From NCBI GenBank assembly GCA_046329115.1, contig JAXLVG010000010.1, positions 84,482 through 148,481 of the forward strand: a stretch of DNA of 64,000 bases, in the 5' to 3' direction. The notes beneath the pieces were generated by a model, which had not been told where the DNA came from, did no database searches, and saw only the letters and a program-made list of their open reading frames with translations. The position numbers and the translations under genes were made by a program. Each line of letters opens with the position of its first letter. Position 1 is the stretch's first letter. This document shows positions 3,396 to 59,160 of this stretch, one piece after another. This stretch comes from Flavobacteriales bacterium. Lineage in GTDB: Bacteria > Bacteroidota > Bacteroidia > Flavobacteriales_F > PHOS-HE28.

Positions 3396-3896
3396 TCAGG
3401 TCGCGAGCTTGGCGTAGACATCCAGGCTGATCCACCGGCCGTCCTTGCGCTCGCATTCGCGTAACGTGCCCTCGTGCCGGAACCCGTGCTTCAGCAGCAC
3501 CCGGGCGCTGGCGGTGTTCTCCGGCTCCACCTCGGCCGTCACGCGATGCAGCCCCAGGGTGTGGAAGGCATGGTCCAGCACGCGGCCGAGCGCCTCGTTG
3601 ACGATGCCCTTGCCCCAATGCTCCGGCAGCAGCCAGTAGCCCAGTTCGCAACGCTTGTGCACCGGGTGGATGTTGTTGATGCCGATGGCGCCCAGGAACT
3701 CCCCGTCCGCCGCAGACCGGATCGCCCACCACTTGCCCGTGCCATCGCGCTCTATGGTGGCGTACCAGTCCATCTGCTCCTGCGTGGCCTCCAGCGTCAT
3801 GAAACGCACGGCGTAGTAGCGGATCACCTCCGGGTGCGACAGGCCGCGGTGGATGTGCGTGATGTCCGCGGGGGTGATGGGGAGGAGGTCGATCAT
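3396..3896 (-). CDS. GNAT family N-acetyltransferase (RimJ/RimL-like)
   Basis: 167 aa with a GNAT fold (GYWLLPEHWGKGIVNEAL). The track ORF begins with GTG at 3899 followed directly by ATG at 3896. Its 5' end is duplicated downstream (see repeat at 4674..4729). Confidence 0.8.
   Translation of the reverse strand: MIDLLPITPADITHIHRGLSHPEVIRYYAVRFMTLEATQEQMDWYATIERDGTGKWWAIRSAADGEFLGAIGINNIHPVHKRCELGYWLLPEHWGKGIVNEALGRVLDHAFHTLGLHRVTAEVEPENTASARVLLKHGFRHEGTLRECERKDGRWISLDVYAKLAT
3823..3878. repeat. direct repeat copy A (inside the 5' end of the GNAT gene)
   Basis: atcacctccgggtgcgacaggccgcggtggatgtgcgtgatgtccgcgggggtgat matches 4674..4729 with 3 mismatches in 56 bp. Confidence 0.85.
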
Positions 3897-3902
3897 CACT
3901 GA

Positions 3903-4343
3903 TCATCGAAGAAGCTGAACGGGCACATCTCCGAACTGCTTGAACGCCTTGTCGTTGGTCACCAACACGTAGCCACCCGTTCGAGCGAAAGCGGCCAGAT
4001 AGGCATCCATCCAAAGCTTGGGCGACGCGGTGCTGGTCGCAGCGAGCTCCATCCAGACGGAATGAAGACCTACGGGCTCATCTGCGAACACGATGCGCGG
4101 ATCGTCCAGCATCCCTTGCATGGCCTTGATGGCCCCCTTGTTGGTGAGCGGGCTCAAACCGAGCGGGCTGGTAAGGGCAGCCGTGGTCAGCAGTCGCAGG
4201 GTGCTCTGCTGGGTGTATCGGCAGAAGTGAACGGAGCCGGTCCGCGCACCTTCGAACCAGTGCATGGCCTGCGGATGCAGCGGATGTGCCTCCAGGCTCA
4301 ATGCGAGCCAGACGTTGACATCGGGAAGGGTGGGCTTGCTCAT
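3903..4343 (-). CDS. vapC: type II toxin-antitoxin system VapC family toxin (PIN domain ribonuclease)
   Basis: 146 aa PIN domain: N-terminal acidic residue (LPDVNVWLAL) and C-terminal TNDKAF motif. It overlaps the upstream antitoxin gene by 4 bp (ATGA). Confidence 0.75.
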   Translation of the reverse strand: MSKPTLPDVNVWLALSLEAHPLHPQAMHWFEGARTGSVHFCRYTQQSTLRLLTTAALTSPLGLSPLTNKGAIKAMQGMLDDPRIVFADEPVGLHSVWMELAATSTASPKLWMDAYLAAFARTGGYVLVTNDKAFKQFGDVPVQLLR

Positions 4344-4588
4344 CGCATTCCGCCCCAGAGCAGTTCGTCCACCCGGTCCGGGGAAAAGTCCTCCGCATTT
4401 TTCGACTTGCCGCCCTTGATCACCGGAAAGGGGCTCCCCCGGGGCTTGCGCTTCCTGGGGCGCTCCTCCTCGGCCAGCAGGCGGCGACAGGCCTCCGCGA
4501 TCAGGTCCTTCAGCTTGGCCCCGTCCTGCGCGGCCTTCATCTTCAACCGGGTCACCAGGTCGGGCGGGAGCTCAAAGGTCATTTTCAT
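4340..4588 (-). CDS. vapB: type II antitoxin, VapB-like (small DNA-binding protein preceding VapC)
   Basis: ORF 4340..4657. Probable start MKMTFELPPDLVTRLKMKAAQDGAKLKDLIAEA at 4588 (82 aa). Placed immediately upstream of the PIN toxin with a 4-bp overlap, the classic vapBC operon layout. Confidence 0.6.
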   Translation of the reverse strand: MKMTFELPPDLVTRLKMKAAQDGAKLKDLIAEACRRLLAEEERPRKRKPRGSPFPVIKGGKSKNAEDFSPDRVDELLWGGMR

Positions 4589-4673
4589 GACCCGAAGGTA
4601 AGGCCTTTGAGGACGGCCAGCAAGCTGGGAAGCTGGTAAACCAGCTTCGCGGGACACCGTTCAGGCCAGGCTC

Positions 4674-4729
4674 ATCACCTCCCGGTGCGACAGGCCGAGG
4701 TGGATGTGCGTGATGTCCGCGGGGGTTAT
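4674..4729. repeat. direct repeat copy B (orphan duplicate of the GNAT 5' coding end)
   Basis: atcacctcccggtgcgacaggccgaggtggatgtgcgtgatgtccgcgggggttat. On the minus strand it translates to ...TPADITHIHLGLSHREVMS, mirroring GNAT residues 8-27. The two copies bracket the vapBC cassette. Confidence 0.85.
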
Positions 4730-4755
4730 TGAGCAAAGTTGGAGCCGAGAAGTTC

Positions 4756-5109
4756 TCACCGCCTCGCAAGTTCGCTCCGCAGGAAGGCCACTTCGCCCTC
4801 CAGGTGCTTGATGCGCTCCTCGTATTGCGCCATCAGCTTCTCCGGGATCTGGTTGTAGATCGTGTTCGCTTTACCCGACTGCGTGCAGTTGTGGAAGACC
4901 AGGTTGTCGTCGAAGGAGACGAGGTCCATGGGATCCATCTCGAAGACCTGCGAGATCTGGTTGATCCGTTCCCAGTCCAGTTTGGTCTCGTCCCGCTCGA
5001 GCTTGCTGTAGCCCCGCTGGCTCAGGCCGAGTGCATGGGCCATGTACTCCTGCGAGAAGCCCTTCAACTCGCGCACCATGCGGATCTTCTGGCCAAGCTT
5101 CTTCTCCAT
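4756..5109 (-). CDS. XRE family helix-turn-helix transcriptional regulator
   Basis: ORF 4756..5319. Likely start MEKKLGQKIRMVRELKGFSQEYMAHALGLSQRGYSKLERDE (HTH_XRE) at 5109; an alternative ATG lies at 5136. The C-terminal half is coiled-coil. Confidence 0.7.
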   Translation of the reverse strand: MEKKLGQKIRMVRELKGFSQEYMAHALGLSQRGYSKLERDETKLDWERINQISQVFEMDPMDLVSFDDNLVFHNCTQSGKANTIYNQIPEKLMAQYEERIKHLEGEVAFLRSELARR

Positions 5110-5164
5110 GCGTCGTCCGGATTTAGAACCAAACATAAGGCGAATAGAACGAATCGGGTGAGCG

Positions 5165-5195
5165 GCGAACAAGCGCACTGTTGAGCTTTGTTCGC
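5165..5195. promoter_or_regulatory. inverted repeat GCGAACAA-N15-TTGTTCGC between the divergent XRE regulator and LamG/T9SS genes (candidate operator)
   Basis: Perfect 8-bp arms at 5165-5172 and 5188-5195, ~20 bp upstream of the ATG at 5214. Confidence 0.45.
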
Positions 5196-5213
5196 ACCGA
5201 ACCGACCACGACG

Positions 5214-6455
5214 ATGAAACAGATTCTATCCGCACTTCTTGTAGTCGCAAGCACCTCCTGCGCGATCGGCCAGGTGCCGAGCTATGTGCCCACCAACGGA
5301 CTTGTTGGTTGGTGGCCATTCAATGGGAATGCAAATGACGAAAGCGGGAACGCCAATCACGGCACGCCTTATGGCCCAATACTCACTACAGATCGCAATA
5401 ACGTAGCGGACAACGCCTATGCGTTCAACCGCAGCGCGGTCCAAACCATCGACGTGTCGCAATCACCCACGCTGAATGGGTGTCCGGCTCTGACCATCTC
5501 CTTATGGACAATCCTGAACAGCTACGCAGCAAACGGCCAGGCCGGGTACAATCACTTCGTGAACAAGAGCCCCGGGGGATCAGACTACCAATACGCCCTA
5601 GCCAATAATACCACCGGCCTATACTTCTACTACGGCAGTGGTGGCGCCTACTTCCAGACAAGCACGCTGCCCTCGCTGAACGCATGGCACCATCTGGCGC
5701 TCACCTATACCTACGATGGTACACCGACCAATTCCTGGTGCCGGTTCTATGTGGACGGTGCTTGCACGGACAGTTTCCCCACCACCACCGTCCTTCAGCC
5801 TACGACGCATCCGTTGCGCTTCGGGTCCTTTCCAGGGGGCACGTACAACACGGTGGATGGTAAGGTGGATGACCTAGGGATCTGGAACCGTATGTTGACT
5901 GCGAACGAAGTAAGTGGGCTCTTCTCAGAGACTCCAGTGTCGCCCTGCATTAGTAGCACCCCCGTCAGCTTCATCGGGTTGAACACCTCGTACACCATTA
6001 ATGACGGCCCGTCCACCTTGGTCGGAACGCCTTCCGGCGGTGTGTTCATCGGCCTGGGAGTGAGCGGCAATAGCTTCGACCCTGCGGTGGCCGGTATCGG
6101 CATCCACAGCATCACGTACACCTACCTCGATGGCACCAATTGTGTGAACACCGCAGGCTTCTGCACCGAGGTGGCCCAGAACGTGGGAATGGGTGGCGCA
6201 GCTATGATCGCAGGCAGGGTGCATGTGTTCCCCAACCCGAACCGTGGCGTGTTCACGGTGGAGTTGGAACTTGATGGGTTGGTGTCCATGCGGGTGACCG
6301 ATGCAGTTGGGCGTCTCATGCACAGCGAGGTCTTCCATGCTAGTGGTGGGCGCACTGCGCGGACACTTGACCTTTCGATGTTAGCCAAGGGCCATTACAC
6401 CCTTCAAGTTCATAATGCCGGAGGTGTGATTGAACAGGGGATTGTCTTGGAGTAG
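5214..6455 (+). CDS. secreted LamG/concanavalin-A-like lectin domain protein with T9SS C-terminal sorting domain
   Basis: ORF 5181..6455. Signal peptide MKQILSALLVVASTSCAIGQ from the ATG at 5214. C-terminal ~80 aa (VFPNPNRGVFTVELELDG...LAKGHYTLQVHNAGG) matches the Por/T9SS type A CTD. The gene has visibly lower GC than its surroundings. Confidence 0.75.
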   Translation: MKQILSALLVVASTSCAIGQVPSYVPTNGLVGWWPFNGNANDESGNANHGTPYGPILTTDRNNVADNAYAFNRSAVQTIDVSQSPTLNGCPALTISLWTILNSYAANGQAGYNHFVNKSPGGSDYQYALANNTTGLYFYYGSGGAYFQTSTLPSLNAWHHLALTYTYDGTPTNSWCRFYVDGACTDSFPTTTVLQPTTHPLRFGSFPGGTYNTVDGKVDDLGIWNRMLTANEVSGLFSETPVSPCISSTPVSFIGLNTSYTINDGPSTLVGTPSGGVFIGLGVSGNSFDPAVAGIGIHSITYTYLDGTNCVNTAGFCTEVAQNVGMGGAAMIAGRVHVFPNPNRGVFTVELELDGLVSMRVTDAVGRLMHSEVFHASGGRTARTLDLSMLAKGHYTLQVHNAGGVIEQGIVLE

Positions 6456-6505: not shown

Positions 6506-7696
6506 TCAACCCTGCACCGCCGCGATCCCCGGCAGCACCTTGCCTTCGAGGTACTCGAGCATGGCGCCGCCGCCGGTGCTCACGTAGCTGATCTTGTCGG
6601 CCAGGCCGAACTGGTTCACCGCAGCCACGCTGTCGCCGCCGCCCACCAGAGAGAACGCCCCTTTGCTTGTAGCCTCGGCCACGGCCTGTGCGATGGCGAT
6701 GGTGCCCTGCTGGAAGGGCTTCATCTCGAACACGCCCATGGGGCCGTTCCACAGCAGCGTCTTGCTGCGGAGGATGGCGGCGCGGCAGGCCTCGATGCTC
6801 TTGGGGCCGATGTCCAGGGCCATCCAGCCGTCGGGCACGGCGTTGGCCGCGCACTGGTCGGTGTTCGCGGTCTCGGCGAAGGCGTCGGCCACCACGGCGT
6901 CGGTGGGGATGTGCAGTTTCACGCCCTTCGCCTCTGCCTCCTTGATGATGCCGCGCGCGGTGTCGAGCAGGTCGTCCTCCACGAGGCTGGCGCCGGTGCG
7001 GCCGCCCATGGCCTTCACGAAGGTGTTGGCCATGCCGCCGCCGATGATCAGCTCATCGCATTTGCCGATGAGGTTCTGCAGGACCTCGATCTTGCTGCTC
7101 ACCTTGCTACCGCCCACGATCGCCGTCATGGGGCGCTGGGGGTTCCCGAGCACCTTGCCCACACTGTCGATCTCGGCCTGCATCAGGTAGCCGAAGAGCT
7201 TGTCCTTGGGGAAGAACTTCGCCACGATGGTGGTGCTGGCATGGGCGCGGTGGGCCGTGCCGAAAGCGTCGTTCACGTAAACGTCGCCAAGCTCGCTGAG
7301 CGCCTTGCTGAAGGCTTCGTCGCCGCCCTCCTCCTCGGGGTGGAAGCGCAGGTTCTCCAGCACCAGCACCTCGCCGGGCTTCAGGGCCGCGGCCTTGGCC
7401 TTGGCGTCAGGGCCGACACAATCCGTTGCGAAGGTGACCACCTTGCCCAGCAGACCGGCCAGGTGTTCGGCGACCGGTCGCAGGCTCATGCCCGGGTTCA
7501 CCTTGCCCTTCGGGCGGCCGAGGTGGCTCATCAGCACGGCGCAGCCGCCATCCCCCAGGATCTTGTTCAAGGTGGGCAGGATGGCCCGTGCCCGGGTATC
7601 GTCGGTCACCTTGCCGCTGGCATCCTGCGGCACGTTCAAGTCCACGCGTACCAAGGCCTTGCGCCCCTTGAAGTCGAAAGCGTTCATGTTCAACAT
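6506..7696 (-). CDS. pgk: phosphoglycerate kinase
   Basis: C-terminal 396 aa of track ORF 6506..9958. [23 protein letters not shown]...GGGDSVAAV...[10 protein letters not shown] are classic Pgk motifs. Start at ATG 7696, or 7687 (MNAFDF). The upstream 750 codons of the ORF are a high-GC artefact. Confidence 0.92.
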
Positions 7697-17276: not shown

Positions 17277-18638
17277 ATGAGCGCGCTGATCCTCACCTCC
17301 GTGCTGGGCGTGCTGGTCCTGTACCTCGGGCTCTTCGGTCGCAAGGAGTGGCTGGCCCCCGTGGGCGTGCTGGGCCTGCTGGGCGCCATCGCCCTGCTCG
17401 CCTTCGACGGTCGTTGGACGGACCTGGCCCAATTCCACCACATGATCCGCTTCGATGGGCCGGCCGTGCTCTTCGGCATGGGGCTGCTGGCCCTCACGGC
17501 GCTCATCTTCCTCTTCGGCGTGGACTACTACGCGCGCGAGACCGAGAACGTGGCTGAGCAGTACGCGTTGATGATCTTCAGCGTGACGGGCGCACTGGTG
17601 CTGGTGAGCTACACCAACCTGCTGATGCTCTTCCTCGGCATCGAGGTGCTGAGCATCCCGCTCTACATCCTGGCCGGCGCGAAGAAGCGCAGCTACCGCA
17701 GCGGGGAGGCCAGCTTCAAGTACTTCCTGCTGGGCTCCTTCGCCAGCGCCTTCATCCTCATGGGCATCGCGCTCATGTACGGCGTGTGCGGCTCCTTTGA
17801 GCTGGAGAAGATCGCCGCCGTGGTGGCACAGGGCACCGAGCCCGCGCTGCTGCTGATGGGCGGCTTCTTCGTGCTGATCGGCCTCACATTCAAGGTGGCC
17901 GCCGTGCCCTTCCATTTCTGGAGCCCCGATGTGTACGAGGGTGCGCCCACCCTGGTCACGACCTTCATGGCCACGGTGGTGAAGATGGCGGCCTTCGCCG
18001 CGCTGTTGCGGCTGGTGCTGCTGGGCGGTCTGCCCGCCGACCTCGGCTACGCTCTGCTGGGCATCACGGCCATCACCCTGCTGGTGGGCAACCTGATCGC
18101 GGTGGTGCAGGAGCGTTTCAAGCGCCTGATGGCCTACAGCAGCGTCGCGCACAGCGGCTTCCTGCTGATGGCCGTGCTGAGCGGTGGCGCGGAGGTGCCG
18201 CAGGCGCTGTTCTACTACACCTTCACCTACGGCCTGGCCACGCTCGGGCTCTTCATGCTCATGACCATCGCCAAGCGCGCGGCCAATGGGGATGAGCACC
18301 TCAGCATCTTCCGTGGCCTCTTCCGCAGCAACGCATGGCTGGGCGTGGTGGCGCTGCTGCTGCTGCTGTCGCTGGCGGGCATCCCGCTCACGGCAGGTTT
18401 CATGGCCAAGTTCAAGGTGTTCCAGCTCGCGCTGACCGCCGGCCACGTGAAGCTCACGGTGCTGGCCGTGGCCATGGCGCTGGTAGGCATCTACTACTAC
18501 GCCGTGGTGATCCGCGAGGCCTTCTCGCCCGCGGAGCAGGCCCCTGCATTGGTGGTGTCGCCCCTCAACCTGCTGGTGATCTCCCTGTGCGGGATCGCGG
18601 TGGTGGTGCTGGGTGTGATGCCGGGGTTGGTGATGTAG
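17277..18638 (+). CDS. nuoN: NADH-quinone oxidoreductase subunit N
   Basis: 453 aa antiporter-like subunit. Its last ~130 bp is duplicated, diverged, at 19294..19425. Confidence 0.9.
   Translation: MSALILTSVLGVLVLYLGLFGRKEWLAPVGVLGLLGAIALLAFDGRWTDLAQFHHMIRFDGPAVLFGMGLLALTALIFLFGVDYYARETENVAEQYALMIFSVTGALVLVSYTNLLMLFLGIEVLSIPLYILAGAKKRSYRSGEASFKYFLLGSFASAFILMGIALMYGVCGSFELEKIAAVVAQGTEPALLLMGGFFVLIGLTFKVAAVPFHFWSPDVYEGAPTLVTTFMATVVKMAAFAALLRLVLLGGLPADLGYALLGITAITLLVGNLIAVVQERFKRLMAYSSVAHSGFLLMAVLSGGAEVPQALFYYTFTYGLATLGLFMLMTIAKRAANGDEHLSIFRGLFRSNAWLGVVALLLLLSLAGIPLTAGFMAKFKVFQLALTAGHVKLTVLAVAMALVGIYYYAVVIREAFSPAEQAPALVVSPLNLLVISLCGIAVVVLGVMPGLVM
18507..18638. repeat. direct repeat copy A = native 3' end of nuoN
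   Basis: 132 bp ending at the nuoN stop. A diverged copy (~76% nt identity, with an identical 27-bp core tcgcccctcaacctgctggtgatctcc) lies at 19294..19425. Confidence 0.8.
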
Positions 18639-19293
18639 GGCTCCACCTCCGCGCTTCCGGCGGTAAGCGATGGCCTTGCGTTCGTGTTATGGCCGGTGAT
18701 CTTGAGCTGAGGCCAGGGTATCCCGTCGCCGCCCGGCTATCTTTGAATGAACACACGGCCCCATGGGAAAGCTCGCCGAAAAGAAGGTCGCTCTGGCGGC
18801 CCAGATCCTTCGATCCGATGATGAAGGCCTGCTTCGTTCCGTGGACGAGCTGCTGAATGGCCGATCATTCCGGCTCTCTTCAGAGGAACTGAAGGACTTG
18901 GAACGCATGCGCAAGCGCTACTTGGCTGGCGACGGCAAGTCGAGCCCGTGGCCTGAGGTGGAGAAACGTCTGCGCAAGAAGCTGCGCGGATGAGCTGGCG
19001 GCTGGAGGTCCATGAAGTGGCCGAAAGCGACATCGCCTCGGCCGCTAGTTGGTACGCTCAGCAACAACCTGGCTTGGAGTCCCGGTTCATCCAAGAGGTG
19101 AAGGCCTGTTGCGCGTTCATCCTGAAGAATCCCCACGGACCAGCAAGGCAGGTGGGCCCTACCGGCAGTTCCGCCTGGAGACCTTCCCCTTCCATGTGAT
19201 CTACCTCATCATGGATGATCTCGTGCTGGTCATGCGGGTCTATCACATGAGCCGTGACCAGCGCCGCAAACTTCCGCGAGGGAGAAGGCCGCG
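18639..19293. mobile_element. integrase-less toxin-antitoxin cassette (addiction-module antitoxin plus frameshifted ParE) bounded by nuoN 3'-end duplications
   Basis: A 655-bp segment between the two nuoN-end copies, an attL/attR-like arrangement. Confidence 0.35.
18763..18993 (+). CDS. putative addiction-module antitoxin component (RelE/ParE-partner family)
   Basis: 76 aa. LSSEELKDLERMRKRYLAGDGKSSPWPEVEKRL resembles the 'putative addiction module component' antitoxins. Its stop overlaps the start of a ParE-like gene (ATGA). Confidence 0.6.
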   Translation: MGKLAEKKVALAAQILRSDDEGLLRSVDELLNGRSFRLSSEELKDLERMRKRYLAGDGKSSPWPEVEKRLRKKLRG

Positions 19294-19297
19294 ATGA
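18990..19297 (+). pseudogene. RelE/ParE family toxin gene disrupted by a frameshift
   Basis: The N-terminal 56 aa (MSWRLEVHEVAESDIASAASWYAQQQPGLESRFIQEVKACCAFILKNPHGPARQVG) are in frame 0, which ends at 19199. The conserved ParE C-terminus (YRQFRLETFPFHVIYLIMDDLVLVMRVYHMSRD) continues in the -1 frame of track ORF 19049..19297. The shift maps to ~19155-19162 (ggccctaccgg). Confidence 0.55.
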
Positions 19298-19425
19298 TCA
19301 TCGAAGCCTTCACGCCCGCCGAACAGGCACCCGCGCTCGTGGAGTCGCCCCTCAACCTGCTGGTGATCTCCTTGTGAGGGACGCGGGGGAGTGGTGCCGG
19401 GGTGATGCTGGGATCGGTGATGTAG
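19294..19425. repeat. direct repeat copy B = degenerate pseudo-copy of the nuoN 3' end
   Basis: Translates to MIIEAFTPAEQAPALVESPLNLLVISL*, versus nuoN ...IREAFSPAEQAPALVVSPLNLLVISLCGIAVVVLGVMPGLVM*. Interrupted by a stop; both copies end ...ggtgatgtag. Confidence 0.8.
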
Positions 19426-19453: not shown

Positions 19454-20686
19454 TCAATGCCCCAATTCCCCCTCCCACTTGCTCACCACGCTCGTGGCGA
19501 TGGCGTTACCCACCACGTTGGTGGCGCTGCGGCCCATGTCGCAGAAGTGATCGATCGGCAGGATGAGCGCGAGGCCCTCCACCGGCACACCGAACATGCC
19601 GAGCGTAGCGGCCACCACAACGAGTGATGCGCGCGGCACTCCGGCGATGCCCTTGCTGGTGAGCATGAGCGTGAGCAGCATGGTCACCTGCGTGCCGAAG
19701 TCGAGGGTGATACCGTAGACCTGGGCGATGAAGAGGCTGGCGAAGGTCATGTACATCATGCTGCCGTCCAGGTTGAAGCTGTAGCCCAGGGGCAGCACGA
19801 AGCTCACCACCTTGTCCTTGCAGCCGAAGCGCTCCAGCTCTTCCATGAGCTTGGGCATCACGGCCTCGCTGCTGGTGGTGCTGAAGGCGATGGTGATGGG
19901 CTGCAGGATGCGGCGCATCAGCTCCTTCATGCGCGCGCCGAGGAAGAGGAAGCCCACACCAAGCAGGATGGCCCACAGGATGGCGAGGCCGATGTAGAAC
20001 TGGCCGATGTAGACGGCGTAGGTGCTCAGCACGCCCAGGCCGTGGATGGCGATCACCGCCGCGATGGCGCCGAAGACGCCGAGCGGAGCGAAGTTCATCA
20101 CGTAGCCCACCATCTTCAGGATCACGTGGGCCACGCTCTCCAGCAGGTACACCACGGGCTTCGCGTAGTCGCCGATGCTGGCGCAGGCCACACCGAAGAA
20201 GATGCTGAACACCACGATCTGGAGCACTTCGTTCCGCGCCATGGCCTCCACCATGCTGCTGGGGAACACGTGGGCGATGAAGTCCTTCAAGGTGAACGCC
20301 TTCGTCTTGTCGAGCACATCGGCCACATCACCGCTCGCCTCCAGGTGCAGGCCCACACCGGGCTGCAGCAGGTTCACCAGGAACATGCCCAGGGCTAGCG
20401 ATACCAGGGATGCGGTGATGAACCACAGCAGCGCACGGCCCCCCACACGTCCCACGGTCCTCATGTCGCCCAGCTTGGCGATGCCCACCACCAGCGTGCT
20501 GAACACCAGCGGCGCGATGATCATCTTGACCAGGCGCAGGAAGATGTCCGTGAGCAGTTTGAGGTTGTCGGCCACGCCTTTGCGCGCCACCTCCTCCATG
20601 TTCACGTGCATCACATAGCCCAGCGCGATGCCCAAGGCCATGGCCACTAGGATGTAGAGCGTGAGCCGGTTGGTCTTCGAGAGCAT
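19454..20686 (-). CDS. dicarboxylate/amino acid:cation symporter (DAACS family, GltP/DctA-like)
   Basis: 410 aa, ~8 TM helices plus re-entrant hairpins. Conserved SSEAVMP and NLDG motifs of the sodium:dicarboxylate symporter family. Confidence 0.85.
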   Translation of the reverse strand: MLSKTNRLTLYILVAMALGIALGYVMHVNMEEVARKGVADNLKLLTDIFLRLVKMIIAPLVFSTLVVGIAKLGDMRTVGRVGGRALLWFITASLVSLALGMFLVNLLQPGVGLHLEASGDVADVLDKTKAFTLKDFIAHVFPSSMVEAMARNEVLQIVVFSIFFGVACASIGDYAKPVVYLLESVAHVILKMVGYVMNFAPLGVFGAIAAVIAIHGLGVLSTYAVYIGQFYIGLAILWAILLGVGFLFLGARMKELMRRILQPITIAFSTTSSEAVMPKLMEELERFGCKDKVVSFVLPLGYSFNLDGSMMYMTFASLFIAQVYGITLDFGTQVTMLLTLMLTSKGIAGVPRASLVVVAATLGMFGVPVEGLALILPIDHFCDMGRSATNVVGNAIATSVVSKWEGELGH

Positions 20687-24592: not shown

Positions 24593-25078
24593 TCAAGGAA
24601 CGGCCGTTGGGGCCATCCCCGCCACGGCGTTCTGTTCGGCCTGGGACCAGCCCTCCTGCACCGCACGGCGCCGCAGTCCGTGCCGTTCCAGCAGGTCCAC
24701 CATGCGCACCAGGTCCTGATAGCGGGTGCGGTCAAGCGGCTTCACCACCACCTGCAGATCGGTGGTATCCGGTATGGCCTTCAAGGCCGCGTTCACCTGA
24801 TCGCGGCCCAGCCGCTTGGGCGGGGTGGTCACTGGATCGAAAGGTCCTGCGTAGCCGAAGATGGAATCGCGCCCGGCCAGCAGGAAGGTGAGCGAACGGT
24901 GCTCCATGCCCGGACCGGCGCCGAGCGGCACCAGCAGGTCGAGCCCCTCCAGGCGCCGCAAGCTGGTGGTGAGCACGAAGAAGGTGAGCAGCAGGAAGGC
25001 CAGGTCCACCATCGGCGTCATGTCGATGCGGATCGCGGGCGCACGGCCCGGAGCGGGATGAACAGGAAGGTCGGCCAT
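24593..25078 (-). CDS. exbD: biopolymer transporter ExbD/TolR (copy paired with TonB copy 1)
   Basis: ORF 24593..25297. Start MADLPVHPAPGRAPAIRIDMTPMVDLAFLLLTFFVL at 25078. The TM segment is almost identical to that of the ExbD at 27320..27952. Confidence 0.8.
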   Translation of the reverse strand: MADLPVHPAPGRAPAIRIDMTPMVDLAFLLLTFFVLTTSLRRLEGLDLLVPLGAGPGMEHRSLTFLLAGRDSIFGYAGPFDPVTTPPKRLGRDQVNAALKAIPDTTDLQVVVKPLDRTRYQDLVRMVDLLERHGLRRRAVQEGWSQAEQNAVAGMAPTAVP

Positions 25079-27319: not shown

Positions 27320-27952
27320 TCAGAACTTGGCTTTCTCGATGTCGATCAGGGCCTGCTCGTCGGGCTTGATGGTATCCTGCACGGCGTATTTGCCGATGCC
27401 CGTGATGTCCATCTCGTCCACGATGTCGATCATGTTCCGGTAGCGCGCGTCCTTCTCGGGCTTGATGATCACGTACAGGGCCTCCTTCTTCTTCTGCGCC
27501 TCGTTCTTCAGGCTGTCGAACACCTCCTCGGTGATCTTCTTCTCGTTGAACTGGCGGGCCAGATCATTGATCCGGTCGAAGGTGCTCTTGTTCATCTCCA
27601 CGAGCATCTTGCGCACGTCCTTGAAGTTGGTCACGCTCATCTGGGTCTCCCCGGGCTTGAAGGCATCCTTGTAGTACACGATGCGATCGGCCTTGGTGAG
27701 GAACAGGGTGAGCGCGTTGTTCACCTTGTCGAGCTCCTTGGGCTGGTCCTCCTCCGGCGGCACCGGGAAGGTGAGCTGCAGGGTGCTCGGCTTGTACATC
27801 GTGGTGGTAAGGATGAAGAACGTGAGCAGCAGGAAGGCCAGGTCCACCATCGGCGTCATGTCGATGCGCGTGCTGCCCTTCTTGGCGCGTTTCTTCTGGT
27901 GTCGTCCCCCGCCTGGGGCTCCTCCACCGTCTCCTCCTGGTGCTTCTGCCAT
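27320..27952 (-). CDS. exbD: biopolymer transporter ExbD/TolR
   Basis: 210 aa, RIDMTPMVDLAFLLLTFFIL TM segment with an extended C-terminal periplasmic domain. Confidence 0.8.
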   Translation of the reverse strand: MAEAPGGDGGGAPGGGRHQKKRAKKGSTRIDMTPMVDLAFLLLTFFILTTTMYKPSTLQLTFPVPPEEDQPKELDKVNNALTLFLTKADRIVYYKDAFKPGETQMSVTNFKDVRKMLVEMNKSTFDRINDLARQFNEKKITEEVFDSLKNEAQKKKEALYVIIKPEKDARYRNMIDIVDEMDITGIGKYAVQDTIKPDEQALIDIEKAKF

Positions 27953-28066: not shown

Positions 28067-28702
28067 TCACATCCGGCTCTCCTCCAGGTCCGTGATCATC
28101 TTGAAGCGGTTGATCTTTATCGTCGGCCCCTGGAAGATCTTGATCACTTCGTTGATCGTGGAATACTTCGCGTTGCCATCGCCCTTCAGCGCCACCAACG
28201 GGTTCTTCCCCCCGCCTTCGCTGCTGAAGATCATCTGGGTCACGCGGATCCAGTCCTGCAACTGGTTGTTCGCATCGTCGTAGGGGATGCCTTTGGACTG
28301 CTGGTCCACCTCCTTGCGCTCGGTGCCGTTGTCCAGGTCCAGGTAGCCCGGCAGCATGGCCATGGGCACCCCGATGTTGTTCAGGTTGGTGAAGCGGGTC
28401 ACCTGGTCTTCCGTAAGCGGCGGCAGGTTGTAGCGCTTGGCCATCTCCACCACCACCGCGGTGCGCACCTTCTTGTCCGTGAAGTCCCAGAACACGCGTC
28501 CGGCACTGTCCACGGTGATGGTCATCAGGTTCTCCGTGGGGATGGGGCTCTGGCTCATGCTGCTCGGCGTGTCCACGGCAACGGCCTCCTCCGGCCGGAA
28601 CTGCGCGGTGAGCATGAAGAAGGTCACCAACAGGAAGGCCAGGTCCACCATCGGGGTCATGTCCAGCGAGGGACTGCTCCGGGGCATCTTGATCTTCGGC
28701 AT
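28067..28702 (-). CDS. exbD: biopolymer transporter ExbD/TolR (second ExbD type of the cluster)
   Basis: 211 aa, LDMTPMVDLAFLLVTFFML. Confidence 0.8.
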   Translation of the reverse strand: MPKIKMPRSSPSLDMTPMVDLAFLLVTFFMLTAQFRPEEAVAVDTPSSMSQSPIPTENLMTITVDSAGRVFWDFTDKKVRTAVVVEMAKRYNLPPLTEDQVTRFTNLNNIGVPMAMLPGYLDLDNGTERKEVDQQSKGIPYDDANNQLQDWIRVTQMIFSSEGGGKNPLVALKGDGNAKYSTINEVIKIFQGPTIKINRFKMITDLEESRM

Positions 28703-43433: not shown

Positions 43434-43546
43434 AACCACAGAGGCCACACAGAACACAGAGAGATCCACATCCCACCCGCACACGCCCAAAGCCTCACAC
43501 GCGTGCATCGCGCATTGCCTCTGTGACCTCTGTGGCCTCTGTGGTT
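43434..43546. repeat. palindromic intergenic repeat element, CACAGAG-heptamer family, copy 1
   Basis: Left arm aaccacagaggccacacagaacacagagag, right arm cctctgtgacctctgtggcctctgtggtt, ~55-bp spacer. Lies between the aminotransferase and C-N hydrolase genes. Confidence 0.8.
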
Positions 43547-56968: not shown

Positions 56969-57055
56969 GAACCACAGAGGCCACAGAGAACACAGAGGAC
57001 AGCGTTCAACACCACTCATGGCATTTCTCTATGCCCTCTGTGCTCTCTGTGGTTC
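56969..57055. repeat. palindromic intergenic repeat element, CACAGAG-heptamer family, copy 2
   Basis: gaaccacagaggccacagagaacacagagg ... cctctgtgctctctgtggttc. Directly upstream of, and overlapping, the GxxExxY track ORF. Confidence 0.8.
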
Positions 57056-57081
57056 AGTTGGATGAGCGCGGCGAATGCACA

Positions 57082-57492
57082 GCGATGAACTCCACCATGA
57101 ACAAGTCCTGGTCATACAATGAGCTCAGTGGAGAGATCATTGGCGCTGCGATCGAAGTGCATCGGGAGCTCGGTCCTGGGTTGCTCGAAAAGGTCTATGA
57201 GGAGGCGCTTTGTCATGAACTACGACTGCGCGGCATCCCGTTCAGGCGTCAGGTCCTTGTGCCTGTTCTTTACAAGGGTGCTGAGCTGAAGGCTCCCTGT
57301 AAATGTGATCTCTGGGTTGCCGGAATGATCATCGTGGAGAACAAAGCGGCATCCGCGTTGACCCCGATCGATGACGCACAATTATTGGGATACCTGAAGC
57401 TCATGGACCAAAGGCTCGGCCTCCTGATGAACTTCAATGTCAAGTTCCTGAAGCAAGGCGTCCGCCGTATTGTGAACGGTTCGTTGGAATGA
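57082..57492 (+). CDS. GxxExxY family protein (PD-(D/E)XK-like small protein)
   Basis: ORF 57031..57492. The first 17 codons lie within a repeat element. Likely start MNSTMNKSWSYNELSGEIIGAAIEVHRELGPGLLEKVYEEAL at 57082 or 57094 (G-x-x-E-x-x-Y signature). GC is clearly lower than in flanking genes. Confidence 0.65.
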   Translation, partial: AMNSTMNKSWSYNELSGEIIGAAIEVHRELGPGLLEKVYEEALCHELRLRGIPFRRQVLVPVLYKGAELKAPCKCDLWVAGMIIVENKAASALTPIDDAQLLGYLKLMDQRLGLLMNFNVKFLKQGVRRIVNGSLE

Positions 57493-57533
57493 TCACTTAG
57501 GTCTTAAAGCGGTTCACTGACTAAGACCCCGGC

Positions 57534-57571
57534 ATTCCTCTGTGCCCTCTGTGCTCTCTGTGGTTGATCCA
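57534..57571. repeat. CACAGAG-heptamer family, copy 3 (single arm)
   Basis: cattcctctgtgccctctgtgctctctgtggttgatcc, directly downstream of the GxxExxY gene. Gives the same spurious MPSVLSVV peptide in the ORF track as copy 2. Confidence 0.75.
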
Positions 57572-59048: not shown

Positions 59049-59160
59049 GGTTCACCACAGAGGCACGGAGGGCACAGAGAAATACATCCGCTTGGGCGGT
59101 GTCCGATCTCATAGTCCGATCCGCATTCCTCTGTGTGCTCTGTGGCCTCTGTGGTTCACC
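59043..59160. repeat. palindromic intergenic repeat element, CACAGAG-heptamer family, copy 4
   Basis: ggttcaccacagaggcacggagggcacagag ... cattcctctgtgtgctctgtggcctctgtggttcaccc. Lies between the ALDH gene and the lpxD 3' end; the right arm reaches the lpxD stop codon. Confidence 0.8.

Follow-up and report, generated by a model that had tools for sequence, protein, structure and literature searches.

Toxin–antitoxin cassettes bracketed by duplicated ends of housekeeping genes in a Flavobacteriales genome

Introduction

How does a toxin–antitoxin (TA) operon of two genes come to lie between two copies of the coding end of a neighbouring gene, with that neighbour still whole? The question is raised by positions 3823–4729 of a 64,000-nucleotide stretch of DNA from a Flavobacteriales bacterium (GenBank assembly GCA_046329115.1, contig JAXLVG010000010.1, positions 84,482 to 148,481; the whole stretch is called the window below), in which vapB and vapC are flanked by a direct repeat of the 5′ end of a GNAT acetyltransferase gene. 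A second TA cassette of the same window, between nuoN and gltP, is constructed alike, and relatives, referred to here by locus numbers (L001 and so on), carry occupied as well as empty versions of the two sites. The reading that we favour, with a probability of roughly 0.55, is that both structures are products of recombination by host functions between a cassette-bearing and an empty allele, homologous on one side and illegitimate on the other, with no dedicated recombinase involved.

The vapBC cassette and its flanking repeat

The repeat comprises 56 nt at 3823–3878 (copy A) and 4674–4729 (copy B), with starts 851 nt apart; the repeat search found 53 of the 56 positions identical (95%, 3 mismatches). 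The probability of at least 53 matches in 56 arising by chance is about 2e-24 for one pair and about 4e-16 when every nearby pair of the window is counted. The copies enclose only vapC and vapB, an insert of about 0.8 kb, as judged from the open reading frames (ORFs) and the family profile matches. The features of the locus are as follows.

3396–3899, minus strand: GNAT N-acetyltransferase, RimJ/RimL-like (Acetyltransf_3, Pfam PF13302, E 5e-34), the working copy
3823–3878, minus strand: repeat copy A, codons 8–26 of the working GNAT gene (ITPADITHIHRGLSHPEVI), from the repeat search
3903–4343, minus strand: vapC, PIN-domain toxin of 146 aa (Pfam PIN PF01850, E 2e-7; NCBIfam TIGR00028)
4340–4588, minus strand: vapB antitoxin of 82 aa, ribbon-helix-helix-like (weak RHH_10 and Antitox_RHH matches), overlapping vapC by 4 nt
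4619–4649, minus strand: palindrome GAAGCTGGT-N2-ACCAGCTTC and a third half-site upstream of vapB, from reading of the sequence
4661–4759, minus strand: orphan 5′ GNAT fragment of 32 codons (VRTSRLQLCSITPADITHIHLGLSHREVMSLA, then stop), containing copy B at 4674–4729; no family match
4756–5109, minus strand: XRE-family HTH regulator (Pfam HTH_3)
5214–6455, plus strand: LamG/T9SS gene, which forms with the XRE gene a separate variable block between pgk and the orphan
6506–7696, minus strand: pgk, which is conserved and anchors the locus on the left; relatives have 22–28 bp between its stop and the GNAT start or the orphan

Copy A belongs to the Acetyltransf_3 gene and is thus the functional GNAT 5′ end; its 44-nt core is identical in the window, L011, L092 and L012. 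A scan of species-representative genomes led to several uncultured Flavobacteriales, with GNAT orthologues of 87–91% identity in L011, L012, L013, L018 and L092. An exact-protein look-up with the 167-aa form of the protein, which starts at GTG, returned no match; the gene is called from ATG. Because the start codon (ATG 3896 or GTG 3899) lies only 4–6 nt beyond the vapC stop, GNAT is probably co-transcribed with vapBC. The same 4–6 nt gap is seen in three lineages (the window, L011 and L092).

VapC scores 111 bits against NCBIfam TIGR00028, the ‘TA system VapC family ribonuclease toxin’, for which the cutoff is 73.6. The ribbon-helix-helix matches of VapB are weak (E 2e-3 to 6e-3, below cutoff), so that the assignment of its fold is tentative. 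The gene has the position expected of an antitoxin, being small, upstream of the toxin gene and overlapping it, with a putative operator ahead of it; gene prediction gives it as 82 aa in every contig of the strain, and vapB and vapC are 78–96% conserved in L011, L088, L092 and L096. The palindrome upstream of vapB is kept in the five lineages, even in L096, where an orphan is missing, and is likely to be the VapB operator; a TAnnTTyG box directly ahead of the vapB start codon may serve as promoter. Third-position GC content (GC3) is 0.75–0.78 in vapBC (0.75 in vapC), compared with 0.88–0.97 in GNAT and core genes (GNAT 0.93). Judged by its sequence, the pair is a type II VapBC toxin–antitoxin, and an ordinary module of its kind.

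The orphan joins the cassette at 4673/4674 (GAGGTGAT followed by GAGCC). Its N-terminus retains the R-h-x-L-x-x-I motif of outgroup GNATs, and the peptide of copy B (ITPADITHIHLGLSHREV) differs from that of copy A (ITPADITHIHRGLSHPEV) at two residues. The preliminary description, made from the window alone, is borne out on the repeat, the contents of the insert, the functional state of copy A and the orphan state of copy B; its statement that both copies encode the same peptide holds approximately. The orphan is decaying under relaxed constraint: the orphans of four genomes have gathered 12 nonsynonymous and 2 synonymous changes, compared with 1 and 5 in the functional copies of six genomes (Fisher p 0.007), the orphan of L011 has a 15-nt deletion and that of L088 is fused to an upstream small ORF. 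The stop codon of the XRE gene (LamG/T9SS-tail and XRE block, 4756–6455) overlaps the orphan's GTG start.

Empty and occupied alleles at the pgk–GNAT junction

L012 presents an empty site, in which pgk is followed after 28 bp by an intact GNAT gene with a single copy of the repeat sequence. L011 has the same pgk-proximal sequence and start codon as L012, followed by the orphan, vapB, vapC and GNAT. Since the L011 orphan sits exactly where the native 5′ end sits in L012, it is the displaced original GNAT 5′ end, and the insert is vapBC together with a replacement GNAT 5′ end. This agrees with the proposal of an insertion that left the interrupted gene whole.

VapC homologues in L011 (94% identical to that of the window), L088 (88%), L092 (77%) and L096 (68%) lie downstream of pgk, at the same locus. 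L088 and L092 have an orphan with the same junction (GAGGTGAT, then the cassette's GCCTGA), and the detectable GNAT 5′ duplication is 47–62 nt long in the window, L011, L092 and L088. The vapBC insertion is therefore old, being common to at least four species-level lineages (those of the window, L011, L088 and L092), rather than a recent event private to this genome, as had been supposed; VapC is 77–94% identical in the three relatives with the junction. The same comparison indicates that it is polymorphic. In L088 the GNAT gene is lost and vapBC retained. L096 has vapBC without an orphan and the outgroup gene order pgk, CSD, GNAT, so that a cold-shock gene separates vapBC from GNAT. L013, which is empty, and L092, which is occupied, are near-identical organisms (PheS, PPIase and CSD 99% identical). 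Relatives with both repeat copies, which had been named as evidence of an ancient and fixed structure, thus exist (L011, L088, L092), but the structure is not fixed.

The block of orphan, vapBC and GNAT appears to have been exchanged between lineages. VapB, VapC and GNAT of the window are 96, 94 and 91% identical to those of L011, but CvpA is only 56% identical, and 44–56% identical to that of any relative, ingroup or outgroup; holB is 58–69% identical to that of every lineage holding it, and the L011 contig has none. In the window the orphan–vapBC–GNAT block is flanked differently, by LamG and XRE on one side and by OsmC, methyltransferase and HemN genes on the other. These identities, and the differing occupancy of L013 and L092, suggest that the whole block probably reached this genome by recombination between lineages. 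The orphan N-termini and their upstream contexts all differ, that of L011 being of L012 type, that of L088 of L013 type and those of L092 and the window of two further types; the seven codons before copy A are unlike every orphan and resemble the native N-termini of L018 and L013.

The interval from pgk to GNAT or CSD is a hotspot, with unrelated small ORFs in other lineages, and the LamG and XRE block is missing in L011, L012, L013 and L092. An ancestral arrangement with GNAT directly next to the XRE gene, which the preliminary description predicted, was never found among XRE homologues: these (81–82% identical) adjoin LamG, ORF221 or AAA-ATPase genes, and the native neighbour of GNAT is pgk. 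Elsewhere the XRE homologues travel with LamG genes, a homologue of ORF221 and a HepT/MNT TA pair.

Precise excision was considered as the source of the empty sites. It would fit L012; none of the occupied alleles seen would yield L013 or L018 by simple excision. The GNAT orthologue of the empty-site relative L018 (3967–4459) appears frameshifted after codon 37, by pseudogene formation or assembly error. The VapC homologue P0020 (57% identical) has a Lactamase_B gene and an FAD monooxygenase as neighbours and lacks direct repeats on its flanks, so not every cassette of this VapC family carries a stub, that is, a displaced gene end.

The other neighbour of the junction has also been duplicated. 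L126–L133 have a 60%-identical VapC at this locus, between two copies (85.6% identical) of a 132-nt stretch from the pgk 3′ end. The array downstream of pgk in L127 (2287–4500; also L126 and L128–L133) consists of a short decayed stub, vapBC, the 132-nt pgk stub, a second TA pair (57 aa and a PIN protein of 124 aa), another pgk stub and a GNAT pseudogene, an order which points to construction by sequential displacement of the pgk end. Its stubs 2 and 3 share three derived substitutions that are not in ten pgk genes, so that either a stub already dead was copied in at least one duplication, or gene conversion took place among the stubs.

A second cassette at the nuoN–gltP junction

The second cassette of the window has the features listed here.

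17277–18638, plus strand: nuoN (NADH dehydrogenase subunit N), intact; its last 138 nt (18501–18638) are repeat copy 1
18763–18993, plus strand: antitoxin of 76 aa, without a Pfam or NCBIfam family
18990–19297, plus strand: ParE-family toxin pseudogene with a +1/−1 frameshift near 19150–19165; its frames match the L118 ParE
19288–19425, plus strand: repeat copy 2, the displaced original nuoN 3′ end, with an in-frame stop and local indels
19454–20686, minus strand: gltP-type sodium:dicarboxylate symporter (Pfam SDF in relatives), the conserved right anchor of the locus

The two nuoN copies are 82% identical over 140 aligned nt and enclose an insert of about 0.65 kb, as had been suggested when the two cassettes of the window were first compared. 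Copy 1 is 82–86% identical to the nuoN 3′ ends of relatives. Copy 2 is taken to be the displaced original end because it lies 28 nt from the gltP stop, the native nuoN–gltP spacing, and has acquired the in-frame stop and indels; it is closest in sequence to copy 1 and not to any relative. Homologues of the antitoxin (56–84% identical) always stand ahead of a ParE toxin, downstream of nuoN. The toxin of the window is frameshifted behind an intact antitoxin, and its last 3 codons derive from copy 2; its two frames match the intact 104-aa ParE of L118. Matches to ParE_toxin (PF05016) were obtained for L118 (E 1e-8) and L120 (E 5e-5), both intact, and the toxin of L125 is frameshifted. The window cassette can thus be classed, from these matches, as a decaying member of a ParDE-like TA family.

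A 29-nt imperfect palindrome (19272–19323, 79% complementary) has its centre at about 19297, exactly at the junction of toxin and copy 2, where the opening 25 nt of the nuoN stub, read as reverse complement, roughly match the toxin tail. The palindrome could have arisen when the strand folded back or the template was switched during joining, or it could be due to chance.

A metagenome scan with NuoN recovered the repeat structure in two further contigs of the same strain (L098 and L107), and found no nuoN duplication at the empty or differently filled nuoN–gltP junctions of other relatives. L105 is an empty site, with the nuoN stop 12 nt from the end of the gltP match. Relatives that carry the cassette differ in the gene end that brackets it. 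In L118, nuoN, the cassette with intact ParE and gltP follow one another with no nuoN duplication and only a decayed gltP remnant. In L125 the cassette is bracketed by a gltP 3′ duplication of about 160 nt (90.6% identical). In L119–L124, gltP stubs of 61–85 nt on both sides of the cassette are nested within a nuoN duplication of 77–90 nt; here the native neighbour is an amino-acid permease gene, not gltP, and the insert carries about 70 nt of donor gltP. That piece of gltP beside a permease indicates that what came in was part of a relative's chromosome, made up of a nuoN 3′ end, the cassette and the gltP segment, and not a free element. The proposal of recurrent insertion is strengthened accordingly: in relatives, members of the two cassette families of the window lie between duplicated pgk, gltP or nuoN ends.

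Identity between the window and L118 is uniform (60–87%) across nuoN, cassette and gltP, with no step at −138, and so gives no sign of a recent import of the cassette-linked nuoN end from an L118-like donor. The 124-nt spacer upstream of the window antitoxin may be a decayed gltP stub, a match that is suggestive only. The gap downstream of nuoN is also a general hotspot, which is filled without nuoN duplication in L099–L102, L104 and L110: L104 (4762–5870) has a DUF4160/DUF2442 pair, L100 and L110 an IS66-family transposase, and L099, L101 and L102 unrelated ORFs. In L119 (4061–4300; GCA_016705955.1) tandem imperfect repeats of about 45–95 nt follow the nuoN 3′ region, and the called ORF is extended to 617 aa.

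A proposed recombination between occupied and empty alleles

Both cassettes occupy tight junctions of conserved genes (pgk and GNAT, nuoN and gltP) that are about 28 bp apart when empty. Under the favoured reading, the exchange would on one side be homologous, fall within the neighbouring gene and leave no visible trace; on the other, an end without homology would be joined within that same gene, 56–160 nt from its terminus. The working gene would then be continuous with the cassette-linked end, and the end of the other allele would be pushed across the cassette, to decay there. The product might form after a double-strand break at the gene end, if one end invaded a homologue with the cassette, was extended by copying as far as the fragment reached and was then closed by end joining; a second route would be a single crossover with a fragment that had become circular. 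Such a stub could then double as a short homology arm, and ordinary homologous recombination could carry the whole unit from one relative to another. In this scheme we infer the break-repair steps, the direction of transfer and the role of toxin addiction in retaining recombinants; DNA breaks induced by ParE might contribute. The anatomy, the empty sites, the decaying stubs, the recurrence with other neighbours and other lengths and the lack of recombinase genes are observed.

Recombination between alleles is supported by the existence of empty and occupied forms (L012 and L011; L105), by the one visible junction of each event, with the gene side seamless, and by the variety of gene ends that, across lineages, enclose one cassette family at one locus. 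The donor gltP of L119–L124, the L127 array, the decay of the stubs, the lack of an integrase, transposase or tRNA in the window and of close VapC relatives on plasmids or viral contigs, and the exchange of the vapBC block between lineages count in its favour too. A role of microhomology at the junction is plausible by comparison with L096 only, where GTSATS precedes AGTCC, compared with GGTGAT in GNAT.

Several observations weigh against this account. The shared substitutions of the L127 stubs fit better with insertion at a dead stub accompanied by target duplication in situ, or with gene conversion. No cassette-bearing allele with vapC abutting GNAT and lacking an orphan was found among the relatives. 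The four orphans have one junction and four different N-termini, which calls for one event followed by exchange of the flanks, or for repeated joins at the same microhomology. The uniform identity of the window and L118 gives no sign of recent import, and recombination between alleles leaves unexplained a 12-mer, TACTACGCCGTG, found at both inner boundaries (see below). Finally, homology-facilitated illegitimate recombination of a single-stranded donor normally deletes or replaces recipient DNA rather than duplicating it, so that duplication would call for a putative variant by break repair, sister chromatids or a circular intermediate.

Alternative explanations

The main rival is a long target duplication made in situ, which we consider possible but on the unlikely side. 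A free cassette would be joined illegitimately at two breaks, offset by 50–160 nt, in one molecule or in sister chromatids; fill-in or segregation would duplicate the recipient sequence, and only insertions that spare both of the packed neighbours would survive, hence the placement at gene ends. Restriction-modification systems yield the same product with no need for an adjacent homologue. Every occupied allele seen, that of L118 included, has at least one stub; copy 2 of nuoN resembles copy 1 most; and in the four well-preserved cases the outer boundaries are start or stop codons, as selection at spacers of 0–28 nt would enforce. The three derived changes of L127 stubs 2 and 3 look as if a second insertion had duplicated a dead stub, and favour this route for at least one event. 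Duplication in situ cannot, however, account for the donor gltP of L119–L124 in a permease lineage, nor for the window nuoN stub and native 28-nt spacer between a long-resident cassette and gltP. The cassette ends vary between events, and the first seven codons of the copy A gene, matching native L018 and L013 alleles and no orphan, also speak against it. The two routes may have operated in succession, with entry by duplication in situ and later reassortment by recombination between alleles.

A bolder extension of the favoured reading is more speculative still, and we hold it to be rather improbable. Stub-flanked TA cassettes might form a mobile class that needs no recombinase, in which the stub, as homology arm, homes the cassette into the intact housekeeping gene of any relative by host recombination alone; addiction (for ParE, through gyrase breaks) would turn curing into survivors bearing duplications, and arrays would grow at the ends of pgk, nuoN and similar genes, perhaps from breaks at TACTACGCCGTG.

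A site-specific integration that leaves attL/attR scars, an analogy drawn by the preliminary description, or a targeted cleavage of the gene-end sequence, by a recombinase or nuclease encoded elsewhere and acting in trans, seems improbable. The geometry is that of islands which regenerate the gene end that they interrupt, and all four GNAT orphans have one junction. A further point in its favour is the 12-mer, which occurs as follows.

3807–3818, minus strand: TACTACGCCGTG, 4 nt beyond the inner end of the GNAT duplication
18495–18506, plus strand: second copy of TACTACGCCGTG, straddling the inner end of the nuoN duplication

These are the only matches in the 64 kb, where 0.18 would be expected, and GTGATCCGC is adjacent at both places in permuted order. 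Two given neighbourhoods of 30–40 nt would share a 12-mer with a probability of about 4e-4 to 9e-4, or about 3e-3 when four boundary pairs are allowed for. Against this, TACTACGCCGTG merely encodes YYAV, which is native and conserved in the GNAT and nuoN genes of cassette-free relatives; in all else the repeats of the two cassettes in the window are unrelated to each other, and the 12-mer is shared by these two events only, so that independent integrations have no common crossover core. The coincidence of the two boundaries is probably accidental. An att-type reaction is further argued against by the variation of repeat lengths and break positions within a cassette family (nuoN −138 and about −90; gltP about −160 and about −70 to −85; pgk −132 and about −57 to −75), at sites without the motif, and by the lack of a recombinase: no integrase or transposase was found among the ORFs of the window, no integrase, transposase or tRNA in the gene tables of the occupied relative loci examined, and no tRNA, tmRNA or Rfam element in scans of the window. 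Searches found no close VapC relative on plasmids or viral contigs. The possibility that the 5′ 90 nt of GNAT are unusually conserved att-like DNA was considered and rejected, since they are only mildly conserved (4–6, compared with 10–20, variable columns per 45 nt), to a degree that codon bias and a conserved peptide can explain. The preliminary description was thus partly right, in that a regenerated gene end and recurrent insertion without an integrase are upheld, unlike its recency, its restriction to one genome and its att-like mechanism.

It is very unlikely that the arrangement is a selected functional unit, in which the orphan would be a leader or regulatory peptide, or a promoter donor, of a three-gene vapB-vapC-GNAT operon. 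The orphan does keep a start codon, and the same TGA end in four lineages, and the short distance from vapC to GNAT makes co-transcription likely in the window, L011 and L092. The excess of nonsynonymous changes, the deletion and the ORF fusion in the orphans tell against a peptide under selection, as do the loss of GNAT next to a retained vapBC in L088 and the separation of the two, with no orphan, in L096. Moreover, vapBC has a conserved candidate operator and promoter-like region of its own, and the GNAT is of RimJ/RimL type, not of GNAT-toxin type.

That an assembler stitched two strain alleles of a gene end in tandem, which might be feared because mixed populations underlie the metagenome assemblies of the window and of almost every relative, can be dismissed, because the vapBC structure is identical in nine same-strain contigs that derive from other samples and were built by other assemblers (Logan, MEGAHIT, SPAdes; L001–L010 all share it, and so give no information on ancestry), the nuoN structure recurs in the two further assemblies, and other species, one of them represented by a 2.28-Mb contig, have orthologous versions that have diverged coherently.

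Comparison with known systems

The closest parallel is a mode of entry known for restriction-modification units and termed ‘insertion with long target duplication’ (Nobusato et al. 2000, Gene 259:99; Furuta, Abe & Kobayashi 2010, PMC2853133; Mruk & Kobayashi 2014, PMC3874152). These insertions have variable direct repeats of more than 30 bp, of the order of 100 bp, which occur once in empty-site genomes, and no mobility genes; the repeats often overlap the 3′ end of a gene, double-strand breaks have been suggested, and the mechanism has been open since the description in 2000 (PMC2853133, PMC3874152). The cassettes described here share the small addiction-type unit without mobility genes, the long, variable, gene-overlapping repeats and the single copy in an empty-site relative. 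In the terms of Furuta et al. (2010), the direct repeats exceed 30 bp and are single in empty sites (56 nt of GNAT, in L012 and L013; 138 nt of nuoN, in L105), and the inserts, of about 0.8 and 0.65 kb, are below 20 kb and contain TA genes only, without mobility genes. The cargo differs, being type II TA (VapBC, ParE-type) in place of the restriction and modification homologues of that definition. Other differences are that the duplications here consistently regenerate the end of a housekeeping gene, which can be either neighbour, that stubs are nested or arrayed, and that at least one insert has a donor flank, which points to recombination between alleles. The TA cassettes thus work like the long-target-duplication class and are not members of it as originally defined. 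A 2014 review ascribes this mode to restriction-modification systems only (PMC3874152), and no description of it for type II TA operons at housekeeping gene ends was found in the literature searched, which was incomplete.

C-terminal displacement with arrays of orphans is known from Rhs, contact-dependent inhibition (CDI) and type VI effector–immunity loci (Jackson et al. 2009; Kirchberger et al. 2017, PMC5361080). There, as here, a homology anchor lies in a conserved gene, a new end and a module are added, the old end is displaced downstream and decays, and successive events give arrays; the L127 array (pgk, vapBC, stub, TA, stub) follows the same logic. In those loci, however, what is displaced is the toxic tip belonging to the polymorphic toxin gene itself, and the immunity genes are retained, whereas the anchors here are unrelated housekeeping genes (pgk, GNAT, nuoN, gltP), the module is a self-contained TA operon, and both 5′ and 3′ ends are used.

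The likeness to integrase islands and prophages lies in the direct repeats of a gene end that flank the insert (attL/attR), with the element supplying the end and the gene remaining functional. Unlike them, the present cassettes have no integrase, tRNA or tmRNA that we could find and no constant core, their repeat lengths and breakpoints vary, and the inserts measure 0.65–0.8 kb. Vibrio superintegrons hold promoter-bearing TA operons as small arrayed cassettes between repeats (PMC2654758). Small TA cassettes separated by repeated sequence are common to both; in contrast with integrons, the repeats here are fragments of neighbouring coding genes and not attC hairpins, with no attC-like inverted repeats bounding the cassettes and no intI found in the window.

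Homology-facilitated illegitimate recombination in natural transformation (de Vries & Wackernagel 2002 and Prudhomme et al. 2002, as cited in PMC5361080 and PMC3240628) resembles the favoured scheme in its single homologous anchor, its one illegitimate junction, for which short microhomology is plausible here, and the lack of an element-encoded enzyme. The experimental events usually delete or replace recipient DNA, whereas every event here duplicates.

Other repeats

Other short-range direct repeats were sought in 126 fetched loci (1.7 Mb). The matches in unrelated genomes were not gene-end stubs; the scan returned transposases of the RAYT type flanked by REP sequences, tandem lipoprotein genes and internal protein repeats. 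In the window, a 35-nt intergenic repeat (GCATTyCTCTGTG..CTCTGTG..CTCTGTGGTT) occurs four times, as a pair at 57020–57565 and singly at 43512–43546 and 59122–59156. The paired copies, 94% identical, bracket the gene (57031–57492) of a 153-aa PD-(D/E)XK ‘GxxExxY’ nuclease (PF13366, E 1e-38; TIGR04256), which has a low GC3 of 0.66. This is a third small cassette between direct repeats; its repeat is dispersed and REP-like, not a gene end. A 79-nt repeat family (77–81% identical) has members at 24946–25024, 27784–27862 and 28585–28663, the last two inside two paralogous ExbD genes (PF02472) of a TonB-ExbBD cluster; it looks like ordinary paralogy, unrelated to the TA cassettes.

Significance

The spread of chromosomal TA modules outside plasmids, phages, transposons and integrons is poorly documented. 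This clade offers a natural series at two loci, of empty sites, single stubs, stubs of either neighbour, nested stubs and an array, which shows a recurrent process that needs no element-encoded enzyme and preserves tightly packed housekeeping genes. The insertion mode is best read, by analogy, as the TA counterpart of both the long target duplication of restriction-modification units and the C-terminal displacement of Rhs and type VI loci. It links TA modules with those restriction-modification and polymorphic-toxin loci, and speaks for one route common to addiction-type genes. A short orphan ORF that repeats the end of the gene next to it can serve to mark an earlier cassette insertion, and its annotation as a gene should be avoided.

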